A stretch of DNA of 64,000 nt. It comes from an uncultured Salinisphaerales bacterium. Its GTDB lineage: Bacteria > Pseudomonadota > Gammaproteobacteria > Nevskiales > CAJXLF01. Both the position numbers and the translations under genes were made by a program. The stretch is taken from the NCBI GenBank assembly GCA_913055805.1, contig CAJXLF010000012.1, positions 35,034-99,033 on the forward strand, written 5' to 3'. Below the pieces are notes generated by a model that had not been told where the DNA came from, made no database searches, and worked only from the letters and a program-made list of their open reading frames with translations. This document shows positions 1-61,113 of the stretch, in pieces (position 1 is the stretch's first letter; every line of letters starts with the position of its first letter).

Positions 1-775
1 CCGCGGTGCGCTGGAAGCGGCCCGGCGAACGCAGCATCAGACCACGTTCAAAACCGGCGGTGGCCATGGCGATACTCCAGCCATCACCATCACCACCGAT
101 GCGATTGGCGATCGGTACGCGCACATCGTCAAAGAAGATTTCAGCAAAGCCCGGCAGACCATTGAGCTGCTGGATGGGACGAATGGTGATGCCCGGGGTA
201 TCCAGCGGCAGCAGGATAAAACACAGACCCTTGTGGCGTTGTGAACCCGCCTCGCAGCGGAACAGGCCGAACAGCCAGTCGGCATAGACAGCGCGGGTCG
301 ACCAGGTTTTCTGGCCGTTGATGACGTATTCGTCGCCGTCGACTTTCGCCGTACTACGGATCGCCGCCATATCGGAACCTGCGCCCGGCTCGGACCAGCC
401 CTGCGCCCAGATGTCCTCACCAGAGGCCATGCGCGGCAGAAACTTCTTCTTCTGCTCCTCGGTGCCATATTCCATGAGGGTCGGCGCCAGCAGGAACACA
501 CCGTTCTGGTTCACGCGCAGCGGTGCGCCGGCGCGCCAGTATTCTTCCTCGAAGATCAGCCATTCGATGAGGTCGGCGCCACGGCCGCCCAGTGCTTGCG
601 GCCAGGTCACCGCACTCCAGCGGCCTTCGAACAGGGTCTTTTCCCACTGGCGGTGCTGCTCGAAACCTTCCTCGGTGTCGAAGCTCTTGAGCGGTTCTTT
701 CGGTACGTTGGCGTCAAGCCAACCGCGGATTTCCGCGCGGAAGGCGTTTTGTTTATCTGTGTATTCCAGTTTCAT
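1..775 (-). CDS. Acyl-CoA dehydrogenase, FadE30/IpdE1-like (HIP/C-D ring catabolism); 3' end runs off the window
   Basis: Not in the ORF track. Manual translation from the ATG at 775: MKLEYTDKQNAFRAEIRGWL...WAQGWSEPGAGSD...INGQKTWSTRA...FAEIFFDDVRVP, which are ACAD motifs. Lies next to echA20/ipdABC-like genes. Confidence 0.85.
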   Translation of the reverse strand, partial: MKLEYTDKQNAFRAEIRGWLDANVPKEPLKSFDTEEGFEQHRQWEKTLFEGRWSAVTWPQALGGRGADLIEWLIFEEEYWRAGAPLRVNQNGVFLLAPTLMEYGTEEQKKKFLPRMASGEDIWAQGWSEPGAGSDMAAIRSTAKVDGDEYVINGQKTWSTRAVYADWLFGLFRCEAGSQRHKGLCFILLPLDTPGITIRPIQQLNGLPGFAEIFFDDVRVPIANRIGGDGDGWSIAMATAGFERGLMLRSPGRFQRTA

Positions 776-793
776 CAATGATTTCCAATCAGA

Positions 794-916
794 CCCCTCA
801 CCCTCTCCCCAAAGTGGAGAGGGGATTCCTCCCTCTCCCTCCGGGAGAAGGGGAGCGCCATCCCTAACGGAGAAGCATCCCCTCTCCCCTGGCGGGAGAG
901 GGCTAGGGTGAGGGGG
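794..916. repeat. REP-like palindromic cluster, family A (CCCTCTCCC-Nx-GGGAGAGGG)
   Basis: ccctctccccaaagtggagagggg; ccctctccctccgggagaaggg; cccctctcccctggcgggagagggctagggtgagggg. Confidence 0.85.
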
Positions 917-937
917 AATAAGTCACGAGTTCTCATA

Positions 938-1696
938 CTATTTCTTGAAATCCACGTCGCGCTTCTCGACAAAGGCGCGCCGCGTCTCGGCCGAATCCTT
1001 CTCCGTATAGGCCTGCAGCGTAAAGCCCTGCTCCCAGCGATACTTGTCTTCCAGGTTGCCGTCCTCGATGCCGTTCAGCGATTCCTTGGCCAGACGAATC
1101 ATGGCGCCGGACTTGGCGGCAATCTTGCCGGCGATATCCATGGCCACTTCACGCAACATGGTCTTGGGCACAACGCGTTCCACGGCACCCAGGCGATGTG
1201 CCTCGGCGGCGTCGATGGGCTCGCCGGTGAAATACATCATGCGCACCTTCTGCACCGGGAACAGGCGCTGCAGATGGGCGCCGCCGCCCATGGCGCCGCG
1301 ATCCACTTCCGGCACGCCGAAACTGGCGCACTCGGAAGCCACCACGATGTCGGCCGCGCCGGTGATGCCAATACCACCACCCAGTACGAAACCATGCACG
1401 GCCACAATCACCGGCACCGGATTGCGGTGGATGGCTTCAAAGCTGCGGTAGTTGCCGGCATTCACATCAACGATCAACTCCGGATGCGCATCCAGCTCCT
1501 TGATATCCACACCGGCGCAGAAACCGCGGCCCTCGGCGCGGATCACAATCACGTTCGCCTCTTCGGCTTCGCCGAGGCGCCAGATTTCATCGGCCAGCGC
1601 GTGCCAACCGGCGCTGTTCAGCGCATTGACCGGTGGCTTGTCGATGACCAGTTCGGCAATGCCGTTTTCTATAGAACTCGTAAACGGGTTATTCAT
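938..1696 (-). CDS. echA20: Enoyl-CoA hydratase, EchA20/ScdY-like
   Basis: Crotonase motifs FCAGVDIKE, GFVLGGGIG, FGVPEVDRG; C-terminal YRWEQGFT; context with ipdABC. Start placed at MNNPF. Confidence 0.8.
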   Translation of the reverse strand: MNNPFTSSIENGIAELVIDKPPVNALNSAGWHALADEIWRLGEAEEANVIVIRAEGRGFCAGVDIKELDAHPELIVDVNAGNYRSFEAIHRNPVPVIVAVHGFVLGGGIGITGAADIVVASECASFGVPEVDRGAMGGGAHLQRLFPVQKVRMMYFTGEPIDAAEAHRLGAVERVVPKTMLREVAMDIAGKIAAKSGAMIRLAKESLNGIEDGNLEDKYRWEQGFTLQAYTEKDSAETRRAFVEKRDVDFKK

Positions 1697-1872
1697 GGAT
1701 GAGGCCTTGTTATGGCATTCAAGCGCAATACTGCCCGGCACAGGGCAGGCCTGCTTTCATTGTCGGGAAACATTATCAAAAACATAGAGCGCAACAGCTT
1801 CACCCTTTAGGACGAGTGCGGCCAGGAACAGCAAAGCTGGCATCCGGAAGCAGGTGATTTCCTGCACCGGGA

Positions 1873-2443: not shown

Positions 2444-2493
2444 ATGGATAGTATCATTATTAGTGTCATTATATCGGAACGGCTTTCAAATGA

Positions 2494-2513
2494 AAAAGCC
2501 CCTAAAAGGGGCT
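2494..2513. terminator. Hairpin terminator downstream of ipdC
   Basis: aaaaagcccctaaaaggggct: agcccc/ggggct stem with a T-tract on the minus strand. Confidence 0.6.
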
Positions 2514-2556: not shown

Positions 2557-3633
2557 CTATTTTTTGATCCGTGTACTGTCAAACAAGCTGGATAGCTGAG
2601 CCTCCGCCTGTTGCACGATGCTGCTGATCAGTTCTTCGCAGGTCGGCAGCGAATCGATCACCGCAGCCACCTGGCCCGATGGCAGTACGCCTTCGTCCGG
2701 CCGACCCTCCACCATGGCACGCTGAATGATGACAGGCGCATTCGCCGCCATCATGGTCTGAATGGCTGAGTCGCCCTCTTTCAGGGCCGTGATGGCGGTT
2801 TTGACCATATGCGCGGTGGACATGCCGGTATGCGCTTTCCACTGCCAGGCCGAGGACAACGCCACCAGCAACCGGTGCAGGAAACCTCCCGACTCAAGCC
2901 GGTGCAGGAAGGGGTTGTCGATCATGCGCTGCGGCAGGCCGTCCATGGCTTTCGATACGCGAATCAGGGCCGGGTCCTTGGTATCCAGATATTTCTGCAG
3001 GGTCGCTTTCGGCACCGGCGATTCGGCCGTGAGCAGAAAGCGTGTGCCCATGGCGATGCCGGCCGCGCCGTAACCCAGCGCGCCGGCCAGGCCACGGCCG
3101 TTGGAAAAACCGCCCGCCGCCACCACCGGCACGTTCACCGCATCCAGCACCTGCGGCAACAGCAGCGTGGTCGGCACCGAACCGGTGTGACCACCGCCCT
3201 CGCCACCCTGGATGGTGATGATGTCGGCGCCCAGTTCCACCGCCTTCACGGCATGCTTCACCGCACCCACCGTCGGCATGCACAGCACGCCGGCGTCCTT
3301 GAAGCGCTGGATGATGTCGGCACTGGGCCCGCGGCCGTAACTCACGGCCCGCACGCGGTCCTTGTTCTCGATGATGAGATCGATCACCTCGGCGGCGTTC
3401 GGCTGGAACATGTGGAAGTTCACGCCGAAGTTGGCATCGGTACCGGCCCGCACCTTGTCGATTGCCGCCTTCAGTTCCGGTGTGGACATGGTCGCCGCGG
3501 CCAGGAAGCCGAAGGCCCCGGCATTGCTGCTGCCGATGACCAGACCGGCATCCGCCACCCAACCCATCGCGGTCTGCACGATTGGATAACGGCAGCCGAG
3601 TTTTACTGTGAGTGGCGTGGACAGGTTCGGCAT
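2557..3633 (-). CDS. ipdC: Nitronate monooxygenase/enoyl-reductase family flavoprotein, IpdC/ScdK-like
   Basis: PIVQTAMGWVA, QGGEGGGHTG, VVAAGGF, IAMGTRFL, GVLPSGQVA; located in the ipdAB operon. Confidence 0.8.
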   Translation of the reverse strand: MPNLSTPLTVKLGCRYPIVQTAMGWVADAGLVIGSSNAGAFGFLAAATMSTPELKAAIDKVRAGTDANFGVNFHMFQPNAAEVIDLIIENKDRVRAVSYGRGPSADIIQRFKDAGVLCMPTVGAVKHAVKAVELGADIITIQGGEGGGHTGSVPTTLLLPQVLDAVNVPVVAAGGFSNGRGLAGALGYGAAGIAMGTRFLLTAESPVPKATLQKYLDTKDPALIRVSKAMDGLPQRMIDNPFLHRLESGGFLHRLLVALSSAWQWKAHTGMSTAHMVKTAITALKEGDSAIQTMMAANAPVIIQRAMVEGRPDEGVLPSGQVAAVIDSLPTCEELISSIVQQAEAQLSSLFDSTRIKK

Positions 3634-3649
3634 ATCTAACTCTTTATTT

Positions 3650-3724
3650 ATCCACAGATTACACAGATTCCACGGATTAATAACATCCTGGAAAAATCTG
3701 TGTACATCTGTGTAATCTGTGGAT
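3650..3724. repeat. REP-like inverted repeat, family B (CCACAGAT/ACACAGAT...ATCTGTG)
   Basis: atccacagattacacagattccacggat ... atctgtgtacatctgtgtaatctgtggat. Confidence 0.85.
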
Positions 3725-3727
3725 CAT

Positions 3728-4909
3728 TCATTTCTTGATAATTACTGACGAGCCGTGCCCGAACAGGCCTTGGTTGGCCGTGATACCAACCTTGGCGCCT
3801 TGCACCTGACGCGCTCCGGCCTGGCCACGCAGCTGCCAGGTGAGTTCGCAGACCTGGGCCAGCGCCTGGGCGGGGACGGCTTCACCGAAGCAGGCCAGAC
3901 CGCCGGAAGGGTTGACCGGAATACGGCCGCCGACAGTTGTTTCGCCGGCACGCAATAACTTCGCCGCCTCACCGCGTTCGCAGAGCTGCAGGTCTTCCAT
4001 CCAGTCCAGTTCCAGCGCGGTGGACAGGTCGTAGACCTCGGCCACGCTGACGTCTTCCGGTCCGATGCCGGCTTCCTCGTAGGCCTTCTTCGGCAGGTTG
4101 GCGCGGAACGACTGCGCCGCCACCACGGCCGAAGAATCGGTGGCGATATCCGGCATTTCCACGGTTTCCGACGCATAGGTCGGGGTGACGGTAGAGATGG
4201 CGGCAATGCGCGGCGCATCGCCCTTGCCGATTTTCTTCGCGTACTCGACGCTGGAAATAATAAGCGCCGCGCCGCCGTCGGAGGTGGCGCAGACATCCAT
4301 CAACCGCAGCGGGTCGGCCACCATGGCCGAGTCGGCCACGTCCTGGGCCGAGAACTTCTTGCGGTAGCGGGCATTGGGATTCTCGAAGCCGTGCGCCGAG
4401 TTCTTCACCTTGACCAGTGCAAAGTCTTCCTGCGTATCGCCGTACAGCGCCATGCGGCGGCGCGCGTAGAGCGCGAAATAGGTCGGATTGGTAATGCCGA
4501 CGCGGAAACGCACCCAGTCCGGATCGTCCGGGCGTTCGCCGGGTTGCGGCTTGAGAAAGCCTTTCGGCGTGGTGTCGGCGCCGATCACCAGGGCCACGTC
4601 GCAGTGTCCGGCCAGGATCTTGGCGCGCGCCGCGGCCAGGGCCTGGGAACCCGAGGCGCAGGCGGCGTAGGAGGTGTTCACCTCGGCGCCCTGCCAGCCC
4701 AGCGCCTGGGCGAAGGTGGCGCCGGCCACGAAACCGGGATAGCCATTGCGAATGGTTGCGCCGCCGGATACGAACTGCACGTCGCGCCATTTCACGCCGG
4801 CGTCTTTCAGCGCCACGCGGGCGGCGTGCACGCCGTACTCCACGAAGTTGCGGCCCCATTTGCCCCAGGGGTGCATGCCGGCGCCCAACACAGCCACTTC
4901 GTTGCTCAT
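3728..4909 (-). CDS. SCP2-type thiolase / lipid-transfer protein (Ltp-like)
   Basis: AACASGSQA, SDGGAAL, AEVYDLS, PVNPSGGL; start at MSNEVAVLGAGMHPWGKW; paired with a DUF35 protein. Confidence 0.85.
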   Translation of the reverse strand: MSNEVAVLGAGMHPWGKWGRNFVEYGVHAARVALKDAGVKWRDVQFVSGGATIRNGYPGFVAGATFAQALGWQGAEVNTSYAACASGSQALAAARAKILAGHCDVALVIGADTTPKGFLKPQPGERPDDPDWVRFRVGITNPTYFALYARRRMALYGDTQEDFALVKVKNSAHGFENPNARYRKKFSAQDVADSAMVADPLRLMDVCATSDGGAALIISSVEYAKKIGKGDAPRIAAISTVTPTYASETVEMPDIATDSSAVVAAQSFRANLPKKAYEEAGIGPEDVSVAEVYDLSTALELDWMEDLQLCERGEAAKLLRAGETTVGGRIPVNPSGGLACFGEAVPAQALAQVCELTWQLRGQAGARQVQGAKVGITANQGLFGHGSSVIIKK

Positions 4910-4910
4910 A

Positions 4911-5026
4911 CCCCCTCTCCCGGCGCTTCGCGCCACCCTCTCCCACAAGGGGAGAGGGAGCAAGAATCAGCGAATGACGCGTAACAAGCCCCTCTCCCCT
5001 TGTGGGAGAGGGGTTGGGGAGAGGGG
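4911..5026. repeat. REP-like pair, family A
   Basis: ccctctcccacaaggggagaggg and cccctctccccttgtgggagaggggttggggagagggg. Confidence 0.85.
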
Positions 5027-5045
5027 TAATACCAATATGCACTCA

Positions 5046-5465
5046 TTAAGCTGGCTTCCACTTCCAGGTGACTTTGCCGTCATTCAATGCTTCCAGCACC
5101 AGTTCCATGGCCATGCCGACTTCAAGCTGTTCGACACTGATGCCGTCCACCACTGAGCCGAGCACGATCATCTTTTCGGCATCCAGTTCAACGGCGGCAA
5201 TCGCATAGGGTTCATGCGGATCCTTCGCCACGAAAGGTTCGGGCGGCTGGTACATGGCATTGGTGTAGGACCACAGCTTGCCGGTACGCGACAGCTTCAC
5301 TTCGTCGAAGCTTTCGCCCTCGCAGTCCGGGTTGCGGCAGAACTTCGCTTCGCCGCGAATCTGCGGAAAGTAATAGGTGCCGCAGGACTGGCACTGCGAA
5401 CCCAGCAGATGCGGCTGCTCGCCGTCGAGCGTAAACCAGCCTTCCAGAACCGGCGTGGCACTCAT
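5046..5465 (-). CDS. Zn-ribbon/OB-fold (DUF35) thiolase partner
   Basis: CQSC...CRNPDC zinc motif; GKLWSYT; PYAIAAVEL. Confidence 0.85.
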   Translation of the reverse strand: MSATPVLEGWFTLDGEQPHLLGSQCQSCGTYYFPQIRGEAKFCRNPDCEGESFDEVKLSRTGKLWSYTNAMYQPPEPFVAKDPHEPYAIAAVELDAEKMIVLGSVVDGISVEQLEVGMAMELVLEALNDGKVTWKWKPA

Positions 5466-6256
5466 GCCGCTTGCCTTATGCCAGGGGGGTTGTCCTTGAT
5501 CTGCTTGCTGCGCACGTCACGCGGGTCGAGCTTGCGGATAATTTCCAGCTGCTCCGCCGTGGGATGCGCAGTCTCGCCACAGTCCTCCGCCTGGATCAGC
5601 GGGAAACCGGTGTTTTGCTGCACTTCCTCGAAACTCACGCCCGGGTGCAGGCTGATCACACGGATGGCATGGTCTGGCCCACCGAAATCCATGACGCAGA
5701 GATTGGTCACGATGTGCTTGATGCTGGCGTAGTCACGCTTCACGCCGGCTTCCCAGCTCTCGTCGCGATAACCCACCGAGCAGACCACGTCCACCTGGTC
5801 TTCCACGAACACGCGCGTGCCGTGGTTGGGCACGAAGAAGGAATTGCCGTGGTTGATGCTGTTGCCGGGGAAGCCACGCATGCCCAGCATCTGGCGCTTG
5901 GGTTTGGCGAAGTCGCCAATGCAGGCAATGTTGGCCTGGCCCCAGCGGTCAATCTGCACCGGGCCGACCAGCGCATGGCGCTTGCCGTTCCACAGCAGGT
6001 CGAAAACCCGCGAGTACGGCATGTAACCGCCGTAGGTGCGGCCTTCATGGTTTTTGGCGCCAATCACGACCGGCTCTTCGGTCAGATAGGCTTCGCCATC
6101 AGTAATCATGATGCCGGGGCTGTGGCTCAGCTTGGCCAGCCCCTGGGCGATACGCGGGATGATGCCGATACCGGTGGCCAGCACTTCGCCTTCGTCTTTC
6201 CAGACATCGGCGCAGGCGCAGATCAGCAGTTCTGCGAGAGTGAAGTTGCTGCTCAT
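5462..6256 (-). CDS. ipdB: IpdB, CoA-transferase-fold C-ring hydrolase beta subunit
   Basis: TLAELLICAC, TDGEA, QIDRWGQANI, QMLGMRGFPGNSINH; start at MSSNF. Confidence 0.85.
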   Translation of the reverse strand: MSSNFTLAELLICACADVWKDEGEVLATGIGIIPRIAQGLAKLSHSPGIMITDGEAYLTEEPVVIGAKNHEGRTYGGYMPYSRVFDLLWNGKRHALVGPVQIDRWGQANIACIGDFAKPKRQMLGMRGFPGNSINHGNSFFVPNHGTRVFVEDQVDVVCSVGYRDESWEAGVKRDYASIKHIVTNLCVMDFGGPDHAIRVISLHPGVSFEEVQQNTGFPLIQAEDCGETAHPTAEQLEIIRKLDPRDVRSKQIKDNPPGIRQAA

Positions 6257-6263
6257 TCCGACA

Positions 6264-6303
6264 CCCCCTCTCCCCGGCCCTCTCCCACGTAGGGGAGAGG
6301 GGG
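6264..6303. repeat. REP-like element, family A
   Basis: ccccctctccccggccctctcccacgtaggggagaggggg. Confidence 0.8.
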
Positions 6304-6332
6304 TTTTTCCATTATCACTGTATGCATATTCA

Positions 6333-7220
6333 TCAGAAGACTTGCCTTGGTAGCGAGGTGATGGCCTCCAGACCGCCCACGGCCTGCTGGTAAGCCGCTT
6401 CGTCACCGCCGAGAAATTCGTCCACGTACTTCTGCCAGCCGCCTTCTTCGTTGGCCGCTTCGCAGTAACGCTTGATGTGGCCGGCGTCCCAACCGTAACC
6501 GCCGCCGTTCACCGCGACATGCGACGTCGGGTGGGCGCCGCCACGAATCTGCACCACGCCGGTCACCAGACTACGCTCGAACAGGTTGTGTTTGGCGTCC
6601 TCTTCGCTGGAATCGATACGATCCACCAGTTCCTCGCAGCTCAGGTAGCAGCGGTCTGCGGCGCGGGCGAACCACTCATCGAAGAAAGGATCCGGGCTGT
6701 AGAGGCGACTGTTACCCAGGCGGTCGGCCTTGTGGGTGTGCAGCAGCGCCACGTCCAGCTTGATGGCCGGCATGGCCAGTAAAGTTTCGCCGTCAGCGTA
6801 GGGCGAGGTCACCGTCTTGACCTCCGGGCTCACCTTGAGAAAGTCAGTGCCCAGGCCGGAACGCGTCGGCAGAAACGGCAGGCGATACGCCGCGGCACGC
6901 AGGCCCCAGTGCAGCATGCCCTCGTCCAGTTCCATGGCCTCGATGCTGCCGGCCTCGCGGGCCTGGCGGAAGAACGGCTCCAGCGGAATGAAGTCCAGCG
7001 ACACGAAACCGTAGATGAGTTTTCGTACCTTGCCGGCGGCACAGAGCATGCCCATGTCCGCCCCGCCGTAACCGACGATAGTCAGATCCTTCAGGCCGGA
7101 GCGCAGAATCTCGCGCACAAGGGCCATGGGCTTGCGCCGCGGACCCCAGCCGCCGATGCCGATGGTCATGCCATCTTCGAGCGTGGCGACGACTTCTGCC
7201 GTCGTCATTTCCTTATTCAC
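6333..7220 (-). CDS. ipdA: IpdA, CoA-transferase-fold C-ring hydrolase alpha subunit
   Basis: GMTIGIGGWGPRRKPMALVR, GFVSLDFIPLEP, ELDEGM, GAHPTS. Confidence 0.9.
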   Translation of the reverse strand: MNKEMTTAEVVATLEDGMTIGIGGWGPRRKPMALVREILRSGLKDLTIVGYGGADMGMLCAAGKVRKLIYGFVSLDFIPLEPFFRQAREAGSIEAMELDEGMLHWGLRAAAYRLPFLPTRSGLGTDFLKVSPEVKTVTSPYADGETLLAMPAIKLDVALLHTHKADRLGNSRLYSPDPFFDEWFARAADRCYLSCEELVDRIDSSEEDAKHNLFERSLVTGVVQIRGGAHPTSHVAVNGGGYGWDAGHIKRYCEAANEEGGWQKYVDEFLGGDEAAYQQAVGGLEAITSLPRQVF

Positions 7221-7277
7221 TTATAAAATCCTTAATCGGTCAATCCTCCCACCCGCTGGTGAGAGATTTTCAACTAT

Positions 7278-7364
7278 CCCCTCTCCCCCGGCGGGAGAGG
7301 GTTAGGGCGAGGGGGAATATTGAGACCACCCTCTCCCCAGCCCTCCCCCATCAAGGGGGAGGGA
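7278..7364. repeat. REP-like pair, family A
   Basis: cccctctcccccggcgggagagggttagggcgaggggg; ccctcccccatcaagggggaggg. Confidence 0.8.
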
Positions 7365-7370
7365 GTGTTC

Positions 7371-8258
7371 TTACTGGAAGCCTACCGAAAAATCATGCCC
7401 CCAGATGCTCACCTTCTCGCCCTGCGTCGTTTCCCAGGTCTCGTGATCAATCACCCGGCCACCGAAGCCGAATTCCAGGGCAAAGTTGCCCGGCGTCATC
7501 ATGTAGAAGGAGGTCATCAGGTCGTTTTCATGCTGGCCCATGGTCGCCATCAGCTTCACATTGTTGGCCTCCATGCGCTCGTGGGCGGCATCGACCTCTT
7601 CCTTGCTGTTGACCTCGACCATGATGTGGATACAGCCGGCCGGATTCGGCATTTCACCCAGCGCCAGGCTGTGGTGACGGCCGTTGCAGTGCAGGAAGTG
7701 CATACGCATGACCGGCGCATCCGGAGCAAACTGCATGCTGAATTCATCCGAAACGCGGAAACCCAGCACATCAGTAAACAGCTTTTCGGTCTCGTCGAAC
7801 GGCAGGGCCGGCAGCACAGTGTGACCCATGCCCATGTCACCGGTCTTGAAACCGCTGACGCCAATGGGCGAAACAAAATCGGACTGGCCACCGGTATAGC
7901 CGTAGCTGACTTCATGGCGGTTACCAGCTGCATCGGTGAACACGGCCAGGTCAGTCACCTTGCGGAAGGCCTTTTCTTCGTCACTGCCGGCCGCGACGTC
8001 CACACCGGCATTCTTCAGCGCCCCGACGGCGGCATCGAAACCAGCCTGGTCTGCCACCTGCCAGCCGGAAGCGTGGTAACGGTCTTCACTGCCGGGCAAC
8101 ACGGCGATGCGATAATCGCGCTCGTCCATCTTCAGGTAAAGGCCGCCACCCGGCGCCTCGGACGTCGACATGCCAAGCACCTGTTCTGCGTAGTGCTTCC
8201 ATTTTGCGACGTCGGTACTCTGGGCCACGATATAGGCCAGTGCGTCAATCTTCGCCAT
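7371..8258 (-). CDS. hsaC: Extradiol dioxygenase, HsaC/TesB (3,4-DHSA meta-cleavage)
   Basis: LKMDERDYRI, MGMGHTVL, FLHCNGRHHSLAL, HIMVEV, GQHENDLMTSFYMMTPG..LEFG. Confidence 0.85.
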   Translation of the reverse strand: MAKIDALAYIVAQSTDVAKWKHYAEQVLGMSTSEAPGGGLYLKMDERDYRIAVLPGSEDRYHASGWQVADQAGFDAAVGALKNAGVDVAAGSDEEKAFRKVTDLAVFTDAAGNRHEVSYGYTGGQSDFVSPIGVSGFKTGDMGMGHTVLPALPFDETEKLFTDVLGFRVSDEFSMQFAPDAPVMRMHFLHCNGRHHSLALGEMPNPAGCIHIMVEVNSKEEVDAAHERMEANNVKLMATMGQHENDLMTSFYMMTPGNFALEFGFGGRVIDHETWETTQGEKVSIWGHDFSVGFQ

Positions 8259-10163: not shown

Positions 10164-11735
10164 ATGTCGAAGTCCTACGCCGCCACTGTTCCCGCCGCCT
10201 TTGCCGAATCCGTCGCCAACTACGGCGAGCGTCCTGCCCTGATTGGAGAGGACGGTCAGTCCTTAAGCTATCGTGAACTCGACGCCGCGCGCCTGCAGGC
10301 CGCGCGGGCATTGATGGCGCTGGGCGTGCAACATGGCGACCGCGTCTCTATCTGGGCGCAGAACTGTAACGAGTGGGTGATTGCCGGCCTGGCCATTCAC
10401 AGCATCGGTGCTGTGCTGGTGCCCATCAATACCCGCATGAAGGGTCAGGAAGCGGGCTATGCCCTGGGCAAGAGCGGCGCCAAGGTGCTGTTCTGCCCCG
10501 GTGACTTCCTGAACCAGCATTACCCGACCCTGCTGGGCGAACACCGGCCCGCCAGTGTCGAACACATCATCGTGCTGCGTGATGCACAGCCGGGCGATCT
10601 GGACTGGCAGACATTTCTCGACAAGGGCGAGGCTGTCTCCGAAGATGCGGTTGCCACGCGTGGGGCTGCCGTCACTGCGGATGACCGCATGGACATCATG
10701 TTCACCTCCGGCACCACCGGCCTGCCCAAGGGCGTAATCACCCATCACGGCCAGAACCTGCGCGTGATTGCCGAATGGTGCGACCGCATGGCCATGACGC
10801 CGGAAGACCGCTACCTGGTCGCCAACCCCTTCTTCCATGCCTTTGGCTACAAGGTGGGCTGGCTGGGCGGCCTGCTGGAAGGCTGCGCCGTGATGCCACA
10901 TGCCATTTTTGATGCCGCCGACGTCATGCGCCGCATCGATGATGACAAGGTCTCCGTGCTGCCCGGTCCGCCCACGCTGTTCATCAGCCTGCTAAATGAC
11001 CCGGCGGCGCAGAAATATGACCTGTCCAGCCTGCGCGCCACTATCACCGGCGCGGCGGCTGTAGCCCCTTCGCTGGTCGACCGCATCCGCGAGGAACTGG
11101 GCTTCGACATCGTACTGACCGGTTATGGCCTGACCGAAACTTGCGGCATCGTGGCGCTCTGCGATCCCGATGACGATGCCGAAACCATTGTCAGCACCTG
11201 CGGCAAACCGATTCCGGATATCGAGGTAGCCATACATGATGTACGAGGGCACGACCCCGAAGGCAAGGCACTGCCTGCCGGCGAGGCCGGTGAAATCGTG
11301 GTGCGCGGTTACAACGTCATGCAGGGTTACTTTGATGACGACGCCGCGACCGCCGAAGCCATCGACAGCCAGGGCTGGCTGCACACCGGCGACATCGGCC
11401 TGATGGACGAACGCGGTTACCTGAAGATCACCGACCGCCTCAAAGACCTGTACATCTGCGGCGGCTTCAACTGCTACCCGGCCGAGATCGAGCGCATGAT
11501 GGCGGCGCACCCGGACATTGCCCAGGTGGCGGTGATCGGCGTGCCGGACGAACGCATGGGCGAAGTCGGCAAGGCCTTCATTGTGCCGCGCGGTGGCGCC
11601 AGCATTGACAGCAAAGCCATGACCGCCTGGTGTCGGGAACAGATGGCCAACTACAAGGTGCCGCGTTACATCGAGACCATTGACGCCCTGCCCACGAACC
11701 CGTCGGGCAAGGTGATGAAGTTCCAATTGAAATAA
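10164..11735 (+). CDS. fadD3: FadD3-family HIP-CoA ligase
   Basis: MFTSGTTGLPKG, NPFFHAFGYKVG, TGYGLTE, WLHTGDIG, ICGGFNCYPAEIE; start at MSKSY. Confidence 0.8.
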   Translation: MSKSYAATVPAAFAESVANYGERPALIGEDGQSLSYRELDAARLQAARALMALGVQHGDRVSIWAQNCNEWVIAGLAIHSIGAVLVPINTRMKGQEAGYALGKSGAKVLFCPGDFLNQHYPTLLGEHRPASVEHIIVLRDAQPGDLDWQTFLDKGEAVSEDAVATRGAAVTADDRMDIMFTSGTTGLPKGVITHHGQNLRVIAEWCDRMAMTPEDRYLVANPFFHAFGYKVGWLGGLLEGCAVMPHAIFDAADVMRRIDDDKVSVLPGPPTLFISLLNDPAAQKYDLSSLRATITGAAAVAPSLVDRIREELGFDIVLTGYGLTETCGIVALCDPDDDAETIVSTCGKPIPDIEVAIHDVRGHDPEGKALPAGEAGEIVVRGYNVMQGYFDDDAATAEAIDSQGWLHTGDIGLMDERGYLKITDRLKDLYICGGFNCYPAEIERMMAAHPDIAQVAVIGVPDERMGEVGKAFIVPRGGASIDSKAMTAWCREQMANYKVPRYIETIDALPTNPSGKVMKFQLK

Positions 11736-11738
11736 TGA

Positions 11739-11870
11739 ACCACAGATGCACACAGATATGCACAGATGGTCATTTTTCTGATCCTGGGTATGTAAGAAGG
11801 AATAAAACTCTACCGCTCATCCTGAGCTTGTCGAAGGATGAATCTGTGTCCATCTGTGAAATCTGTGGAT
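11739..11870. repeat. Family B repeat with a nested family C element (ccgctcatcctgagcttgtcgaagga, 11813-11838)
   Basis: ccacagatgcacacagatatgcacagat ... atctgtgtccatctgtgaaatctgtggat. Confidence 0.85.
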
Positions 11871-11877
11871 AAAGAAT

Positions 11878-12747
11878 ATGAACAATGAGAAACCTTTAAA
11901 AGGCAAAGTCGCCTGCGTCACCGGCGCCTCACGCGGCGCCGGCAAGGGCATTGCCGAAGCCCTGGGCGCCGAGGGCGCCACCGTCTATGTGACCGGTCGC
12001 AGCAAACAGGAAGGTGACGCACCTCTACCCGGCACCATCTATGCCACGGCTGACGCCATCACCGCCGCCGGCGGCAACGGCATTGCCGTGGCCTGCGATC
12101 ATGCTGACGACGCCCAGGTTGCCGCGCTTTTTGAGCAAATCAAGCACGAACAGGGCCGCCTCGACATCCTGGTGAACAACGCCTGCTTCCTGCACGACGA
12201 ACTTATCCAGACCGGCGGCTTCTGGGAAAAATCCCTCGGCCTGGTGGATATCCTCGATGTCGGCCTGCGCTCGTCCTATGTGGCCAGCTGGCATGCCGCA
12301 AAAATGATGGTGGAGCAGAAGAATGGCCTGATTGCCTTCACTTCGTCGTTTGGTGGCAACTGCTACATGCATGGCGCAGCCTATGGCGCACAGAAAGCCG
12401 GCGTGGACCGCTTTGCCTACGACATGGCGGTGGACCTGAAAGACTACAACGTCGCCGCGGTGTCCATCTGGATGGGCATGTTGCGCACGGAGCGTAGCCA
12501 CCGGGCCATGGATCTGGAGCCGGAGAAATACCAGGGCTTCTGGGATATTTCCGAAACCCCGGAATTCACCGGCCATATTCTCTCGGCCATCTACCGCGAC
12601 TCGGATCGGGCCGACAAATCCGGCAAGGTACTGATCGGCGCCGAAGTCGCCCTTGAGTACGGCATTACCGATGAAGACCGCCAGCCGCCCTCACATCGCG
12701 AAATGCTCGGCGGGCCGCCGGCGGTCCATCCCGCCATCGTGCAATAA
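11878..12747 (+). CDS. Short-chain dehydrogenase/reductase (DHRS1-like)
   Basis: TGASRGAGKG, LVNNA, YGAQK. Confidence 0.85.
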   Translation: MNNEKPLKGKVACVTGASRGAGKGIAEALGAEGATVYVTGRSKQEGDAPLPGTIYATADAITAAGGNGIAVACDHADDAQVAALFEQIKHEQGRLDILVNNACFLHDELIQTGGFWEKSLGLVDILDVGLRSSYVASWHAAKMMVEQKNGLIAFTSSFGGNCYMHGAAYGAQKAGVDRFAYDMAVDLKDYNVAAVSIWMGMLRTERSHRAMDLEPEKYQGFWDISETPEFTGHILSAIYRDSDRADKSGKVLIGAEVALEYGITDEDRQPPSHREMLGGPPAVHPAIVQ

Positions 12748-38210: not shown

Positions 38211-38215
38211 AAATC

Positions 38216-46450: not shown

Positions 46451-46483
46451 AAAACAAAAAGCCCTTCGATTGAAGGGCTTTTT
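46451..46483. terminator. Bidirectional terminator, left copy of a 33-bp direct repeat
   Basis: aaaacaaaaagcccttcgattgaagggcttttt, identical to 51859-51891. Confidence 0.9.
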
Positions 46484-46904: not shown

Positions 46905-46921
46905 TATTATAGTATGCAGTT

Positions 46922-47500: not shown

Positions 47501-47664
47501 ATGATAACTGTACCCCTTGCATTCGAGTGTCGCTTCGCGCCGAAGTTAGGCGAGGGCAACATCCGCACATTTACAGTGAACACCCGTAACCAAAGGGTCA
47601 AGGGGCTAGGAGACATGGGTTATTTTCGGGATAACATCCGCATCTGCAAAGCAGGACTGAGCAC

Positions 47665-50610: not shown

Positions 50611-50626
50611 CATCGAGGCGGCCACC

Positions 50627-51727
50627 GTGTTCTACAATCAGCCTCTTTCTGTTCGCTTCGGCACCGAACTGCTACGACACGTCGACCACGCATCCAGCAT
50701 TGAGCCGTACTGGGATCAACTGGACATAGCGGTTGCCTGGGTACGTGCATCAGGTGTCAATTACCTTGAAACCAGCCTGCGCAAGTTCCTTAGGCATGGT
50801 GGACGTCTATCTATTATCGTCGGGATCGACCTACAAAACACGACGCGGGATGGGCTTCAGGCATTGCTGAATCTAGAGGGGCACGGCACATGCGAAACGT
50901 TTGTGTACCATAACGAAGCCGGAAGTATTTTCCATCCAAAGCTATATTTATTCCGTAATGAAGAAGAAGCCCGACTGATTGTCGGCTCTAACAATCTTAC
51001 CGCTGCGGGACTATATTCAAATGTCGAGGCAGGATTGCAGGTAGATACCGAATTAACAGCCGATTTAATTGCAGAAGCAAGTGATGCTCTGGCCGCTTGG
51101 AAAGACGCGGCGGAAGGCATGGCGGTCCGCCTAGACGCTGCGTTTCTGACTGATCTAGTGGCAGAGGGATACGTCTCAGACGAGAGGGCCACCCGCAATG
51201 CAGAGAAAAAGCGCCGCGCTTCGCGAAGTTCGCGCAGCGGTCGCCGCTTATTCGGCTCAAGATCATTCAACCCTCCGGCTAGGCCTTCGAGTGTGCACAC
51301 CCCCTCTGCATCGCCCACAGCCACTATACCTGCCGCCACACCCGTTCCTACGGGTACTACAATCCTAATGAGGTTGCGCTCGGCCCGTGGCACGCAAGTT
51401 CAAATACCCTTCCGGGTAGCATCGACCTTCTTCACCGGAATCAACCAAGTTATCAGCGCCCAAAATGGCAACGTTCACGGGTTGAACATTGCTAAAGCAA
51501 GAGGTAAACCGAATACAACAAAGCTTGAGATTCCAGAGCTGCTCGGTTTTAGCGATGTCTTCGCCAGATTCGAGAAGACTCCTGCGGGTGTGGTCTACGA
51601 AGTTTACGATGCCGGTACGGCACAAGGAAACCAAATTGAAGCGAGCCTCAAGAATGGCATGGCTAACGGTGAAACCCAGCAAAGTATCAAGGATACTTCC
51701 AGAGCAACCTGGTGGCGAGAGATATAG
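50627..51727 (+). CDS. PLD-family (HxK) nuclease, BfiI/NgoFVII-like, with a C-terminal putative DNA-binding domain
   Basis: IAVAWVRASG, IIVGID, FHPKLYLF, IVGSNNLT..GL..NVE; P/S/T-rich linker then a ~120-aa domain. Confidence 0.8.
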   Translation: MFYNQPLSVRFGTELLRHVDHASSIEPYWDQLDIAVAWVRASGVNYLETSLRKFLRHGGRLSIIVGIDLQNTTRDGLQALLNLEGHGTCETFVYHNEAGSIFHPKLYLFRNEEEARLIVGSNNLTAAGLYSNVEAGLQVDTELTADLIAEASDALAAWKDAAEGMAVRLDAAFLTDLVAEGYVSDERATRNAEKKRRASRSSRSGRRLFGSRSFNPPARPSSVHTPSASPTATIPAATPVPTGTTILMRLRSARGTQVQIPFRVASTFFTGINQVISAQNGNVHGLNIAKARGKPNTTKLEIPELLGFSDVFARFEKTPAGVVYEVYDAGTAQGNQIEASLKNGMANGETQQSIKDTSRATWWREI

Positions 51728-51858
51728 AACGCCGCTTACCCGCACAATTGATACCCTTTGAAATCACCACGGTCTAGACTAGCGCATCTACCAAAGTGAC
51801 AGCAGTGGAACAATTTTTATGACGGCACTAATGTGCAACTGCTTAATAATTTCATCTC

Positions 51859-51891
51859 AAAACAAAAAGCCCTTCGATTGAAGGGCTTTTT
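51859..51891. terminator. Bidirectional terminator, right copy of the 33-bp direct repeat
   Basis: aaaacaaaaagcccttcgattgaagggcttttt. Confidence 0.9.
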
Positions 51892-57118: not shown

Positions 57119-58717
57119 ATGCCGGCCAACAGCTTTGACTACGTGGTGATTGGAGCAGGCTCTTCGGGCTGTGTGGCTGCCGCACGCCTGGCCGAAGCCG
57201 GTTCCGTGCTGCTGCTGGAAGCGGGCGAGCCTGCCGCGAACCACCCGGAAACGCTCTCTGCCGACGGCTTCAAGGATGCCTTCGCCAACGACGCGTTGAT
57301 GTGGCAACGCATGAGCATCCCACAGGCGGATTGCGGCAAACGCCGCCTTTACCTGGGCAGCGGCCGCGGCATGGGCGGCAGCGGCGCCGTCAATGGCATG
57401 GTCTATACCCGCGGCGACCGCAGGGACTTCCGTCACTGGCCCGCTGGCTGGCAATGGGACGACTTGCAGCCCGCTTTCGAATCCGTCGAGCGGCAACTCG
57501 GCATCCGGCACCGCGAAAGCACCCCGTTTGCGGAACGTTTTATCCAGGCCGCCACCCAGGCCGGCTTGGATCGCAAGGACGGCATGAACGACGGCAACCT
57601 GCTGGGCGTGGTGGGCTGCAATGACATGAACTATTCGGGTGATGCCCGGCGCAGTTCCTATGCCGCCTGGCTGCATGACCAACAACCTGAAAACCTGACG
57701 ATCATTACCGGCGCGCAGGTACGCCGCCTGGTATTTGACGATGCCCGCAACGCCAGCGCCGTCATTTACAGAAAGGACGGACAGATACACCGTGCCGATA
57801 TTGGCCACGAAGTCCTGCTTTGTGCCGGCGCGCTGGAAACGCCCAAACTGCTGATGCTGTCCGGCATCGGGCCACAGGCGCACCTGCAGTCTCTGGGTAT
57901 CAATGTGGTGCTGGACGCGCCCGGCGTCGGCCAGCATCTGCAGGATCACCCCAACGTCTGCATGTTCTACCGTGCGGCGCAGCCAGTGGATTTCCGTTAC
58001 CCGCAGGTCTATGGCTTTGACGCCGCGGCGCGCCAACCCGGCGAACCGGCAGACGCGCCAGACACCTGCTTTGTCTGCTACGCAGCGCCGGCATCGATCA
58101 AGCACTCCATGCTGCGCATGCTGCCGATCCTGGCGCTGCCTGGCCGCTTGCATGACCTGCGCCCTTTGCGCCAGGCACTGCGCGGCCTCATTCATCTGGC
58201 CTTTGCCCTGCCACCCCTCAAGCGATTTGTGTCCCGCGTGTTCGGCATCGTCGTCATCCTGGGCAAACCCACGGCCCGCGGCAGCATCCGCCTGGCCTCC
58301 AGCGACCCGTCGGCACCGACTCTGATCGACCCGGCTTATTACGCCACCGAACAGGATCGCCGCACCATGGAAGCCGGCATAGCCAAGGCCCGCCGCATTG
58401 CAGCGCAGCCGCCGCTGGCCGAAGCCAGACCCCTGTCACCGGGCGCAAGAGATGTGAGCGCTAAAAAACTCTGGCAATGGATTCGTGCCGCCACCATGAC
58501 CACCTTCCATTTCTGCGGCTCCTGCCGCATGGGCACAGATGCTGACAGCCCGGTGGACACCCGGCTGCGCGTCAAGGGACTGGGCAATGTACGCGTGGCC
58601 GACGCCTCGGTGATGCCGGAAATCCCGGTCTCCGCCCTGAACGCCCCGAGCATGATGATCGGCTACCGTGCGGCCGACTTCGTGCTGGCCACCCAATCCA
58701 GGAGAGAAGCGGCGTGA
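57119..58717 (+). CDS. GMC-family FAD oxidoreductase
   Basis: IGAGSSG, GGSGAVNGMVYTRG, LMLSGIG, GQHLQDH, FHFCGSCRMG, VADASVMP, LNAP. Confidence 0.9.
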   Translation: MPANSFDYVVIGAGSSGCVAAARLAEAGSVLLLEAGEPAANHPETLSADGFKDAFANDALMWQRMSIPQADCGKRRLYLGSGRGMGGSGAVNGMVYTRGDRRDFRHWPAGWQWDDLQPAFESVERQLGIRHRESTPFAERFIQAATQAGLDRKDGMNDGNLLGVVGCNDMNYSGDARRSSYAAWLHDQQPENLTIITGAQVRRLVFDDARNASAVIYRKDGQIHRADIGHEVLLCAGALETPKLLMLSGIGPQAHLQSLGINVVLDAPGVGQHLQDHPNVCMFYRAAQPVDFRYPQVYGFDAAARQPGEPADAPDTCFVCYAAPASIKHSMLRMLPILALPGRLHDLRPLRQALRGLIHLAFALPPLKRFVSRVFGIVVILGKPTARGSIRLASSDPSAPTLIDPAYYATEQDRRTMEAGIAKARRIAAQPPLAEARPLSPGARDVSAKKLWQWIRAATMTTFHFCGSCRMGTDADSPVDTRLRVKGLGNVRVADASVMPEIPVSALNAPSMMIGYRAADFVLATQSRREAA

Positions 58718-60333
58718 GCTCTGTTCAACCTCTGACCACACCGGCATCAGCCAACGTCATTGAATGCATTAATCCGGCGACCGGGGAAAAGCTGGGCAGC
58801 TTGCCCGCCGCCAGCCCGGCGCAGGTACAGGCGGCGGTGGAGCGCGCCCGCATTGCCCAGCAGAGCTGGGCACGGAGCAGTTTCAGACAACGCCGCGCCG
58901 TATTGCAGCACATGCTGGACCACATGCTCGAACATGCCGACGAACTGGTGGCCGAGATCGTGCAGGACAGCGGCAAGACCCATGAAAACGCGCTGCTCGG
59001 CGAGATCATGCCGGTGTGCAACAAGATCCGCTGGATGATCAAGAATGCCGAGAAGCACCTGAAGCCCGAGAAAGTGCCATCCGGCATCCTCATGCACAAG
59101 AAAGGCCGCATTGAATACCGGCCGCTGGGGGTAGTGGCCTGCATCGTGCCCTGGAATTATCCCTTCCAGAATATCTTCGGCTCTCTCGTCGCCCCGTTGA
59201 TGGCCGGCAATGCGGTCATCCTCAAGACTTCCGAAGCGGTGGCCTGGTCCACACAGCGTTTCCAGAAAGTGATCGACCAGGCGCTGGAAAAAGAAGGCTT
59301 CTCCACCGACACCGTGCAGATTATCAACGGCTTCGGCGACACCGGCGCGGCCCTGGTGCGCAGCCGCGTACAGAAAATCCTCTTTATCGGCTCGGTCGGC
59401 AATGGCCGCCGCATTATCGAAGGCAGCGCCGAACACCTCACCCCGGTGGTGATGGAACTGGGCGGCAAGGACCCGATGATCATCTGCGAGGACGCCAACC
59501 TGGAGCAGGCCCTGCATTCGGCACTGGGCGGCTGCTTCATCAACCTCGGCCAGAACTGCATTGCCTCCGAACGCCTCATCGTGCTGGACGGCATCTACGA
59601 CCGCTTTGTCACCGCCATGCACGAGATGGCCGGCCAACTACGGCAAGGCGTGCCGCAGGAACCCGGCGCTCTGGATACCGGCGCACTGACCAGCCCCTTG
59701 CAGGTCAAGGTGGTGGATGAACTGGTGCGTGACGCCCTGGCCAACGGCGCCCGCGCGCTGGTCGGCGGCCGGTTACCGCAAGGTCCCGGCAACTTCTACC
59801 CACCTACGGTGCTGGTCGATGTCACCCCGGACATGCGCATCGCCAACGAAGAAGTATTTGGCCCGGTGATGCTGATCATGCGGGTGAAAGACGATGCCGA
59901 AGCCGTGCGGCTGGCCAATGCTACCGACTTCGGTCTGCAGTCCTCGGTGTTCAGCAACAATCGCCCGCGGGCGGAACGCATTGCCGCCCAGCTGGAAGCC
60001 GGCGCCACCGTGATCAACGATTTCGGCCTCTGTTACCTGAACCAGAACCTGCCCTTCGGCGGCGTGAAGTATTCGGGTTTCGGGCGCATGAATGGCCGCG
60101 ACGGCCTGCGCGCCTATACCAACGCCAAGGCCGTGCTCACCGACCGTTTTCCGATTTCCATTCCCCCCAAACTGTATCCGGTCAAACCGGGCGACTACGC
60201 CAGGGCTCGCAGCAGCATAAGGCTGATGTTTGCCCGCCGCTGGCGCGACAAGTTCAAGGCGCTAATCAGTCTCCTTGGAAAAAAACCCTCCCCCTTGGGG
60301 GGGGAGGGTAAGGGAGGGGGTGAGGATGAATAG
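58714..60333 (+). CDS. Aldehyde dehydrogenase
   Basis: PWNYP, FIGS, ELGGKDP, GQNC, EEVFGP, PFGGVKYSGFGR. Confidence 0.95.
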   Translation: MSSVQPLTTPASANVIECINPATGEKLGSLPAASPAQVQAAVERARIAQQSWARSSFRQRRAVLQHMLDHMLEHADELVAEIVQDSGKTHENALLGEIMPVCNKIRWMIKNAEKHLKPEKVPSGILMHKKGRIEYRPLGVVACIVPWNYPFQNIFGSLVAPLMAGNAVILKTSEAVAWSTQRFQKVIDQALEKEGFSTDTVQIINGFGDTGAALVRSRVQKILFIGSVGNGRRIIEGSAEHLTPVVMELGGKDPMIICEDANLEQALHSALGGCFINLGQNCIASERLIVLDGIYDRFVTAMHEMAGQLRQGVPQEPGALDTGALTSPLQVKVVDELVRDALANGARALVGGRLPQGPGNFYPPTVLVDVTPDMRIANEEVFGPVMLIMRVKDDAEAVRLANATDFGLQSSVFSNNRPRAERIAAQLEAGATVINDFGLCYLNQNLPFGGVKYSGFGRMNGRDGLRAYTNAKAVLTDRFPISIPPKLYPVKPGDYARARSSIRLMFARRWRDKFKALISLLGKKPSPLGGEGKGGGEDE

Positions 60334-60410
60334 TCTCTTCCCCCTCTCCCCAACCCTCTCCCACCAGGGGAGAGGGAAAAGAAAACCCGCCTTCTCCCGT
60401 CAGGGAGGAG
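60286..60410. repeat. Family A repeats, partly within the ALDH 3' end
   Basis: ccctcccccttggggggggaggg; cccctctccccaaccctctcccaccaggggagaggg. Confidence 0.8.
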
Positions 60411-60438
60411 AGCACTTTCCCGCCTGGAGGCAGGAATC

Positions 60439-61113
60439 ATGAATACGACGTTCTTTATCTGCCTGGCAGCCATCATGCTTTATGACGGCATGTTGATGAC
60501 CTGGCTGTCCTGGGCGGCGACCTCTTCCCGTCTGAAGCAATACCGCATCCGCACGCCCAAGACCTATCAACTGCCGCCGCTGCGCAAACGCCTCAATGTC
60601 ACGTTGAATAACCTGATGTCGCTGGGTCTGTTTCTGGCTTTCCTGTTTTTCTTTGGCGACAGCGCCCTCTACCCGGGCTGGCCGGGCGCGGCGCATCTGC
60701 TGGGTGAATCCCTGGCGGTACTGCTGCTCTATGATTTTCTTTATTACTTCTACCACCGTGGCATGCATCACCGCCTGGTGTTGAAGTATGTACACAGGGT
60801 GCATCACATGGTGCGCTTCCCCACGGCCAACGAAAGCGTCTTTCTGCATCCGCTTGAGGCAGTGGGCGCCATCTTCCTGCTGTGCGGTTCCATCCTGCTG
60901 TTTGGCCCCATCAGCACCTGGTCGTTCCTGGTGGTGTTCTTCGTGTATTCCACGGTGAACATCCTGGTTCACAGCAACCTGGAATTACCGCATCCGGCGT
61001 TCCGGCTACTGAATTTCTGGGCCCGGGCGCATGACGTGCATCACAAGGAACTCAAGTACAACTATTCCTCGATTTTCCCGTTCTGGGATCAGGCCTTCGG
61101 CACTTTCAAATAA
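60439..61113 (+). CDS. Sterol desaturase / fatty-acid hydroxylase superfamily (ERG25/ERG3-type di-iron enzyme)
   Basis: His boxes HRGMH, HRVHH, HSN, HDVHH; HPLE; NYSSIFPFWDQAFGT. Confidence 0.9.
   Translation: MNTTFFICLAAIMLYDGMLMTWLSWAATSSRLKQYRIRTPKTYQLPPLRKRLNVTLNNLMSLGLFLAFLFFFGDSALYPGWPGAAHLLGESLAVLLLYDFLYYFYHRGMHHRLVLKYVHRVHHMVRFPTANESVFLHPLEAVGAIFLLCGSILLFGPISTWSFLVVFFVYSTVNILVHSNLELPHPAFRLLNFWARAHDVHHKELKYNYSSIFPFWDQAFGTFK

Follow-up and report, generated by a model that had tools for sequence, protein, structure and literature searches.

Short open reading frames span recent repeat insertions at formerly overlapping gene junctions of a steroid-catabolic cluster in an uncultured Salinisphaerales bacterium

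REP and REPIN elements of Proteobacteria are GC-rich imperfect palindromes that are often arranged as inverted pairs and are present in tens of extragenic copies. REP elements in general are covered by an overview in a 2011 review (PMC3184786). Another kind of interspersed repeat, the mycobacterial interspersed repetitive unit (MIRU) of Supply et al. 1997, is described in passages of the same review and of a 2025 review of translational coupling (PMC12548453). By these accounts, MIRUs sit between the genes of polycistrons, the ends of the MIRU's open reading frame (ORF) overlap the adjacent genes, and filled sites show tetranucleotide direct repeats (PMC3184786, PMC12548453). MIRUs appear to insert at start codons, with the MIRU ORF coupled at -4 (PMC12548453), and this coupling likely minimises the effect on the downstream gene (PMC3184786, PMC12548453). 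Here we analyse a steroid-catabolic gene cluster in a 64,000-nt stretch of DNA, the window, from an uncultured Salinisphaerales bacterium (assembly GCA_913055805.1, contig CAJXLF010000012.1, positions 35,034 to 99,033). In this cluster, six mini-ORFs (J1 to J6; Table 1) bridge repeat insertions between co-directional genes, from the stop codon of one gene to the start codon of the next or close to it. The insertions are young, and their reading frames are biased towards such bridges in this cluster and in those of relatives.

The junctions resemble MIRU sites, as those sites are described in the two reviews, in several ways. The repeats are intercistronic, lie within predicted operons, and are missing from the orthologous sites of relatives. 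The small ORF is co-directional with the flanking genes and overlaps the stop of one neighbour and the start of the other (-4 spacing). The ATGA at both ends of J1, J3, and J4 might be a counterpart of the short direct repeats at filled MIRU sites, but ATGA is also the start/stop motif itself, and CACAGAT copies elsewhere have no duplication. On the other hand, the host is known from a gammaproteobacterial metagenome-assembled genome (MAG) and is not a mycobacterium. We found no tandem arrays of 40-100-bp units at the junctions, unlike in MIRUs; at least three unrelated families of hairpins or inverted repeats are involved; and many copies of the repeats have no bridge. Here, the ORF is not fixed by the element as in MIRUs; instead, each insertion seems to have been filtered separately for its phase. 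Since insertion and coupling of this kind were already proposed for MIRUs, the ribosome relay that a sequence-only reading of the window had put forward is the MIRU idea. What we describe is a variant of it, as judged from the sequences: a different phylum, no tandem units, several unrelated families, and evidence for case-by-case filtering of the phase.

Two other systems share features with these junctions. Ribosome-delivering short upstream ORFs, or bicistronic designs, are described in part of PMC12548453; there too, a short ORF that does not serve as a coding sequence finishes where the real gene starts, and it delivers a ribosome there despite repressive structure. In contrast, the short ORF here is itself coupled to the upstream gene (so that this would be a two-step relay) and is made of a mobile repeat. 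Fusions of repeats with genes (RPE, BOX, ERIC-type, and Neisseria REP2) are mentioned in PMC3184786. Stop-poor repeats also fuse to gene ends in our window, at the tail of an aldehyde dehydrogenase and at an in-frame ATG at 38177, but the six mini-ORFs are separate ORFs that are out of frame with both neighbouring genes. In the literature that we searched, which did not include subscription journals, we found no description of coupled bridge ORFs across a REP, a REPIN, or a MITE (miniature inverted-repeat transposable element).

Mini-ORFs and the age of the insertions

The sequence-only reading had listed six intervals as stop-free short ORFs. On translation, each is an ATG-initiated ORF with no internal stop and of exactly the length claimed, and the junction motifs at all six also read as it had stated. 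By gene calls and family matches, each junction lies between co-directional genes of a predicted operon. At both ends of J1, J3, J4, and J6, a start codon overlaps the preceding stop or is a few nucleotides from it. J3, J4, and J6 overlap their neighbours at both ends, while J2 and J5 overlap only the upstream gene. In four cases, the closing TGA belongs to the ATGA of the downstream gene. The spacers are indeed filled with repeats, either REP/REPIN-like GC-rich hairpins or an inverted-repeat element of CACAGAT type, and the repeat families behind bridges number at least three, as claimed; insertions that give bridges are 77 to 166 nt long.

J6 stands as an ORF but its description needs a correction: the reading frame of the aldehyde dehydrogenase upstream continues for about 15 codons within a copy of the repeat (60283-60333). 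Relatives of this protein align only to residue 523-527 of 539, and the C-terminal tail is missing from them. A repeat copy at 60283-60326 lies in the 3' end of the gene, so the J6 insertion begins within what was formerly the end of the aldehyde dehydrogenase.

We located the orthologous junctions in a genome from the same genus (G001), in one from the same family (G002), and in other genomes of the same order. J1, J2, J3, J4, and J6 are free of insertions in G002 and in most of the other relatives. Across relatives, the genes at these junctions overlap or abut (ATGA, TGATG, TAATG, TAAgATG, or TAAtcATG). Specifically, the relatives have TAAgATG, TAGATG, or TGATG at J1; ATGA, TAATG, or TGAtg at J2; TAAtcATG or TGATG at J4; and ATGA at J6. 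The J3 junction overlaps in both G001 and G002, and in a wider set, 47 of 78 loci have the -4 spacing of an ATGA-type overlap at the same junction (OB-fold to thiolase). The same-genus relative has a spacer at J5 too, but it is a different one, of 126 nt. The insertions are therefore lineage-specific, and the junctions were originally of the overlapping, coupled type. The claim that these junctions are of the translationally coupled type is thus borne out in that the ancestral genes overlapped, which is the spacing associated with coupling. It also follows that the ATG of each mini-ORF occupies the place of the former start codon, which had overlapped the upstream stop or come after it.

Some junction sequence is shared by the two ends of the insertions: ATGA at J1 and J4, ATGAG at J3, and ATGAAC at J5, with the proviso that ATGA is the start/stop motif itself. 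In the spacer between the FabK-like gene and the hydratase gene of another relative (G003, locus L052), two hairpin insertions are accompanied by three copies of the 9-nt sequence CCATGAGCG around them. In the OB-fold to thiolase spacer of G019 (locus L042), the bridge ORF opens with a diverged copy of the first 13 codons of the thiolase. Together with the shared ends, these two cases suggest that the junction was duplicated to some extent during insertion. The length of this duplication is not fixed, and copies of the CACAGAT element elsewhere have no target duplication. We considered whether target-site duplication is the whole explanation and rejected this: the flanking repeats are 3-7 nt with no fixed length, and there are none at the CACAGAT copies. 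At J6, the sequence ATGAATA is in the centre of the hairpin doublet and not at its edge. We saw no empty-site variant among contigs of three other samples, which are identical over the parts that they cover, including J3.

The predicted RNA folds of these spacers are far more stable than those of shuffled sequences (J3, -94.6 kcal/mol, z = -9.6; J2, -38.6 kcal/mol, z = -6.3). J1 has a predicted fold of -85.2 kcal/mol (J1 and J3 were folded per 150 nt). In J3 and J4, the only sequence that resembles a Shine-Dalgarno (SD) site is the G arm immediately 5' of the ATG, which the predicted fold shows as paired; SD-like G arms are predicted to be paired right up to the downstream ATG. Across the steroid set, an unpaired SD motif was present in 0/22 bridged spacers and in 4/19 unbridged ones, which is a weak contrast (Fisher 0.038), and over all 100 spacers there was no contrast in free SD motifs.

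Bridge counts and the frame-rotation test

The genome (G000; 3.38 Mb, 58% GC, 21 contigs) has 848 co-directional spacers of 50-400 nt. We classified 86 of them as repeat-containing (at least 5 BLAST partners among the spacers) and 697 as partner-free, and we set aside the 65 with 1-4 partners. We counted a bridge if an ATG began at -8 to +6 relative to the base that directly follows the upstream stop and if the last base of the stop was at -16 to +4 from the downstream start. Eleven of the repeat-containing spacers have bridges, compared to 2.56±1.28 if whole spacers are shuffled while preserving dinucleotides (maximum 6 in 200 shuffles); a comparison with shuffles was a check that the sequence-only reading had asked for. 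If the edges are preserved (9 nt and 16 nt kept), then shuffles give 5.54±1.68, with 11 or more in 1 of 200, and if the interiors are reverse-complemented, 5 bridges remain. Inherited edge codons thus explain roughly half of the raw excess. Of the 11 bridges, seven are on the contig that contains the window (C12; the window is C12:35034-99033), five of these seven are among the six mini-ORFs, and one further bridge on C12 is just upstream of the window. J6 is scored as a bridge only with the wider limit of -8. As a separate observation, doubly coupled ORFs are rarer in the repeat-free co-directional spacers than in dinucleotide shuffles of the same spacers (9/697 versus 17.3±4.1).

Frame rotation keeps the real sequences and asks whether the ATG near the upstream stop lies in the bridging frame. 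In a calibration with 116 repeat-free spacers, there were 9 bridges versus 10.0 expected. On C12, 7 of the 8 repeat spacers with such an ATG bridge, as compared to 2.67 expected (P = 9e-4).

The same bias appears in relatives. The replication set has 28 loci from 12 genomes of the same order (about 0.5 Mb of steroid-gene regions, with genes called in the same way). Some of these loci had been fetched for extra tight junction classes, to which they added 1 expansion, and were then used as unselected replicates. The set has 177 co-directional spacers of 45-400 nt. An ATG lies near the upstream stop in 38 of them, and 20 of these 38 bridge (10.33 expected, P = 1.4e-5). If we consider just the spacers with at least one bridging frame, then the ATG is in a bridging frame in 20 of 23. 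The pooled counts for relatives, and an independent insertion at J4 (L008/L047), include loci from an unpublished genome (G005); without it, the result is 16/29 versus 7.67 expected (P = 3.4e-5).

We also examined eight classes of junction that are tight in the majority of genomes. Among the 24 expansions of these junctions in relatives, 10 have ATG bridges, or 14 if any start codon is allowed, so bridges also arise where other elements have inserted independently at junctions of these classes. For this set, shuffling whole spacers gives 3.0±1.3 bridges, shuffling with the edges kept gives 7.0±1.4 (at least 10 in 10 of 300), and 6 bridges remain if the interiors are reverse-complemented.

To see what the bridges replace, we pooled C12 and the relatives and classified the fate of the frame for the 43 spacers whose ATGs are in a single frame (3 spacers with ATGs in two frames were dropped). 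Bridges were observed 26 times versus 12.3 expected; early stops, 11 versus 20.7; overruns into the next gene, 5 versus 6.7; and in-frame extensions, 1 versus 3.3. Control sets agree with expectation. The excess of bridges thus comes at the expense of early stops, which fits better with a need to cross the spacer than with avoidance of out-of-frame overrun. Overall, most of the pattern is due to inherited edges and stop-poor repeats, an excess remains, and the data support a weaker, statistical bridge bias in this cluster and in its relatives.

Repeat families and the gene setting

Family A, which is at J1, J3, J4, and J6, has hairpins of the form CCCTCTCCC-loop-GGGAGAGGG that bear an additional C or G arm and are often paired in inverted orientation; doublets are present at J1, J3, and two spacers with no bridge (X1 and X2 in Table 1). 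There are 43 of these hairpins in the genome (86 regular-expression matches on both strands), and 22 of them are on C12, a contig that makes up 3.2% of the genome. Of the 86 repeat-containing co-directional spacers, 18 are on C12 as well. Like REP and REPIN elements, family A consists of GC-rich imperfect palindromes that are often in inverted pairs, with tens of extragenic copies, and its predicted RNA hairpins are very stable. Unlike them, it has no apparent cognate RAYT: the only match to a Y1 (IS200/RAYT-type) transposase in the genome (PF01797, C1:472592-473282) is flanked by GACCCCTTTTCTCCCC-type repeats, which do not resemble family A or family B.

Family B, at J2 and J5, is an element with CACAGAT-type inverted ends of about 27 nt. 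There are 22 full copies of 71-301 nt, with ends of type ATCCACAGATTACACAGAT, and like MITEs they are small, have terminal inverted repeats, and lack a transposase. We found no flanking direct repeat that would indicate target-site duplication at the 22 copies; the AT/AT beside the ends of the element is palindromic, and a subfamily has AA/TT. Elsewhere in the genome (C4:219946-220969), a gene of about 233 amino acids lies between two CACAGAT elements, each of which begins 0-1 nt after the preceding stop codon. A scan of the window with Rfam did not match any family.

Genes were called with our own caller, which combines dicodon log-odds with a simple term for the ribosome binding site; it gave 3158 genes that cover 90% of the genome. 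Matches to NCBIfam identify a steroid-catabolic cluster in the window (Table 1). The closest named relatives of the thiolase are from gammaproteobacterial MAGs that are labelled as Pseudomonadales, Nevskia, Halieaceae, and Spongiibacteraceae. We did not find terminator-like sites on the gene strand in the spacers of J1-J5. At 2468-2513 (- strand), between the FabK-like gene and two small unassigned ORFs (1873-2443), there is a terminator-like hairpin with a promoter-like site directly after it, so J1 may be in a separate transcription unit from J2-J4. Also, about 5.4 kb of the window (46451-51891) has a GC content of ~51%, versus ~60% around it, and is flanked by a perfect 33-nt direct repeat (46451-46483 and 51859-51891) that resembles a terminator hairpin. 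This stretch is probably an acquired island.

Table 1. Mini-ORFs, unbridged repeat spacers, and genes in the window (positions within the 64,000-nt stretch)
Feature	Coordinates	Strand	Details
J1 mini-ORF	775-936	-	53 aa; enoyl-CoA hydratase to acyl-CoA dehydrogenase; TAG-T-ATG upstream (1-nt gap), TGATG downstream; inverted pair of family A hairpins (repeats 799-823 and 877-920)
J2 mini-ORF	3648-3731	-	27 aa; thiolase/lipid-transfer protein to FabK-like reductase; ATGA upstream, closing TAA 14 nt before downstream ATG; CACAGAT inverted-repeat element at ~3652-3722, whose own end GGATAA provides the stop
J3 mini-ORF	4906-5046	-	46 aa; OB-fold (BbsA-like) protein to thiolase; TAATG upstream, ATGA downstream; REPIN-like doublet (4918-4960 and 4987-5030)
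J4 mini-ORF	6253-6333	-	26 aa; CoA-transferase subunit A to partner gene; TGATG upstream, ATGA downstream; one family A unit (6260-6302)
J5 mini-ORF	11735-11872	+	45 aa; FadD3 to SDR gene; TAATG upstream, closing TAA 5 nt before downstream ATG; CACAGAT element at ~11740-11868 with inner CTGAGCTTGTCGAAGG hairpin
J6 mini-ORF	60326-60442	+	38 aa; aldehyde dehydrogenase to gene 60439-61113; ATGAATAG upstream, ATGA downstream
Repeat-encoded C-terminal extension of aldehyde dehydrogenase	60283-60333	+	~15 aa, KKPSPLGGEGKGGGEDE
X1, no bridge	7221-7370	-	REPIN-like doublet between hsaC and CoA-transferase subunit A; repeats 7276-7319 and 7323-7365
X2, no bridge	23694-23821	+	family A doublet after P450 gene; tail with AAAGGGAGAA before ATG
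X3, in-frame ATG	38064-38215	-	after kstD; repeat 38128-38170
Acyl-CoA dehydrogenase	2-775	-	NCBIfam
Enoyl-CoA hydratase	938-1741	-	NCBIfam
FabK-like reductase	2557-3633	-	NCBIfam
Thiolase/lipid-transfer protein	3728-4909	-	NCBIfam
OB-fold BbsA-like protein	5046-5465	-	NCBIfam
CoA-transferase partner gene	5462-6256	-	downstream of J4
CoA-transferase subunit A	6333-7220	-	NCBIfam
HsaC-like dioxygenase (hsaC)	7371-8258		NCBIfam
FadD3	10164-11735	+	NCBIfam
SDR gene	11878-12747	+	downstream of J5
KstD	38216-39943	-	NCBIfam
HsaA	39964-41163		NCBIfam
Aldehyde dehydrogenase gene	58714-60333	+	upstream of J6
Gene downstream of J6	60439-61113	+	

Readings of the frame excess

We propose that a selection filter acts on young repeat insertions and keeps those that leave a termination-reinitiation relay across the spacer. 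From the sequence comparisons, this is the best reading, and we put its probability at roughly 0.5. In outline, REP/REPIN-like hairpins and the MITE-like CACAGAT element would have landed recently in overlapping junctions (ATGA, TGATG, or TAATG). With the former start codon having overlapped the stop of the upstream gene, an ATG would be left at that stop after the insertion, and its frame would be closed by the TGA of the downstream ATGA or by a stop at the edge of the element. The copies that persist would be enriched for those with a frame that is open across the insertion. A ribosome that finishes the upstream gene would then re-initiate on this junk ORF and translate the 26-59 codons of the bridge. 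Its passage would melt the hairpins that otherwise hide the SD-like G arm and the start region, and it would stop at or near the downstream ATG and re-initiate there. The net effect would be a two-step relay, and the spacer might also be kept covered against Rho. We infer the translation, the re-initiation, and the role of selection as the cause of the frame excess.

The relay of the sequence-only reading agrees with the ancestral overlap, the lineage-specific insertions, the stable predicted folds, and the frame excess, but its rule that insertions survive only when they are bridged does not hold. Of the 86 repeat-containing co-directional spacers, 62 have no ATG near the upstream stop, and neither do 10 of the 24 tight-class expansions in relatives. 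Within the window there are three exceptions (X1-X3), which are as that reading had described them: X1 and X2 have stops in all three sense frames, and at X3 (38063-38216) the ATG at 38177 shares its frame with a start at 38063 that is likely the true one and is preceded by AGGAGGAG.

Several other results also weigh against a filter. The claim that bridges exceed chance holds on C12 and in the steroid clusters of relatives, but fails on the rest of the genome, where frame rotation gives no excess (4/16 versus 3.67 expected, P = 0.55). Among the 15 expansions of 40-400 nt in the wider 80-locus set, which spans many taxa, none has an ATG bridge and 3 have a bridge that starts with GTG or TTG; in the lone ATG-bearing spacer, the frame stops after two codons. 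Shuffles that keep the edges reach about half to two thirds of the observed bridges, both in this genome and in relatives. Overall, sense frames are not more open than antisense frames (0.86 versus 0.91 open frames per spacer). The bridge windows were set after the six cases had been seen, so that all of them count, although the relatives were scored later with the same windows. Gene starts rest on our own caller, which mis-set at least one start inside a repeat (X3, at 38156). Finally, the samples are small, and the loci from relatives are all steroid-gene regions.

A rival reading is that the bridges are a neutral by-product of inherited or duplicated edges and stop-poor repeats, with the rest due to small samples, start calling, and criteria chosen post hoc; the mini-ORFs would then be either untranslated or irrelevant. 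This is possible, although we doubt it more than we credit it. Edges alone give 5.5 of the 11 bridges in this genome and 7.0 of the 10 in relatives, and reverse-complemented interiors give 5 and 6. Open frames through the repeats are common: all three sense frames are open at J6 and two of three at J3 and at J4, and the C-terminal extension of the aldehyde dehydrogenase and the in-frame N-terminal ORF of X3 are further examples. The lack of an excess on other contigs or in the 80-locus set is also as expected from a neutral origin, and the insertions are too young for conservation to show, with the three other samples identical over J3. However, the calibrated frame rotation still gives P = 9e-4 on C12 and P = 1.4e-5 in the relatives, which were scored afterwards. 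In J2 and J5, which are AT-richer, the frame in use is in each case the only sense frame with no stop other than the terminal one. And inherited edges cannot account for the depletion of early stops.

It is improbable, in our view, that the bridge is a property of the element and not the outcome of selection on each insertion, that is, that start codons are the targets of MIRU-like elements, which bring along an ORF of their own that has a built-in start and an in-phase length class. MIRUs are described as behaving in this way, inserting at start codons with -4 coupling, in part of PMC12548453. Here, there is ATGA at both ends of J1, J3, and J4 and ATGAAC at J5; the 9-mer of G003 is repeated around its hairpins; the right end of the CACAGAT element (GGATAA or GGATAG) gives a stop in one frame; and the left flank of J1 resembles the left flanks of insertions in two relatives. 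But the bridges come from at least three unrelated families, whose insertions range from 77 to 166 nt. For family A, we rejected a built-in end that bears an ATG, as the flanks of its 43 units do not have a conserved one. Most of the 22 CACAGAT copies, which lack target duplications, follow the stops of convergent or unrelated genes, and many copies of the same families lie in co-directional spacers without a bridge. As for functional small proteins, the mini-ORFs are ATG-initiated and encode 26-53 amino acids, but this idea is hardly credible, as the peptide sequence is just the repeat sequence (such as PLSPTLSHQGRG-type strings), the insertions are missing from same-genus and same-family relatives, and the bridges of relatives derive from unrelated elements.

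Returning to the selection filter, it may be general, although we offer this only tentatively and with the odds somewhat against it: structured mobile repeats of any kind could settle at coupled junctions but would persist there preferentially if the remaining start codon opened a stop-free relay frame, relay ORFs of 26-59 codons would be functional parts of operons in repeat-rich Gammaproteobacteria, and the arms of REP elements would be masked Shine-Dalgarno sites that only the relay ribosome exposes.

If the frame bias is due to selection, then these junctions are a natural, replicated test of how far operons depend on termination-reinitiation. Re-initiating ribosomes would be able to pass tens of non-coding codons and very stable hairpins, and the places within operons that mobile repeats can occupy would follow a rule. 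Also, in repeat-rich genomes, short ORFs encoded by repeats should then not be dismissed, or mis-annotated as hypothetical proteins.

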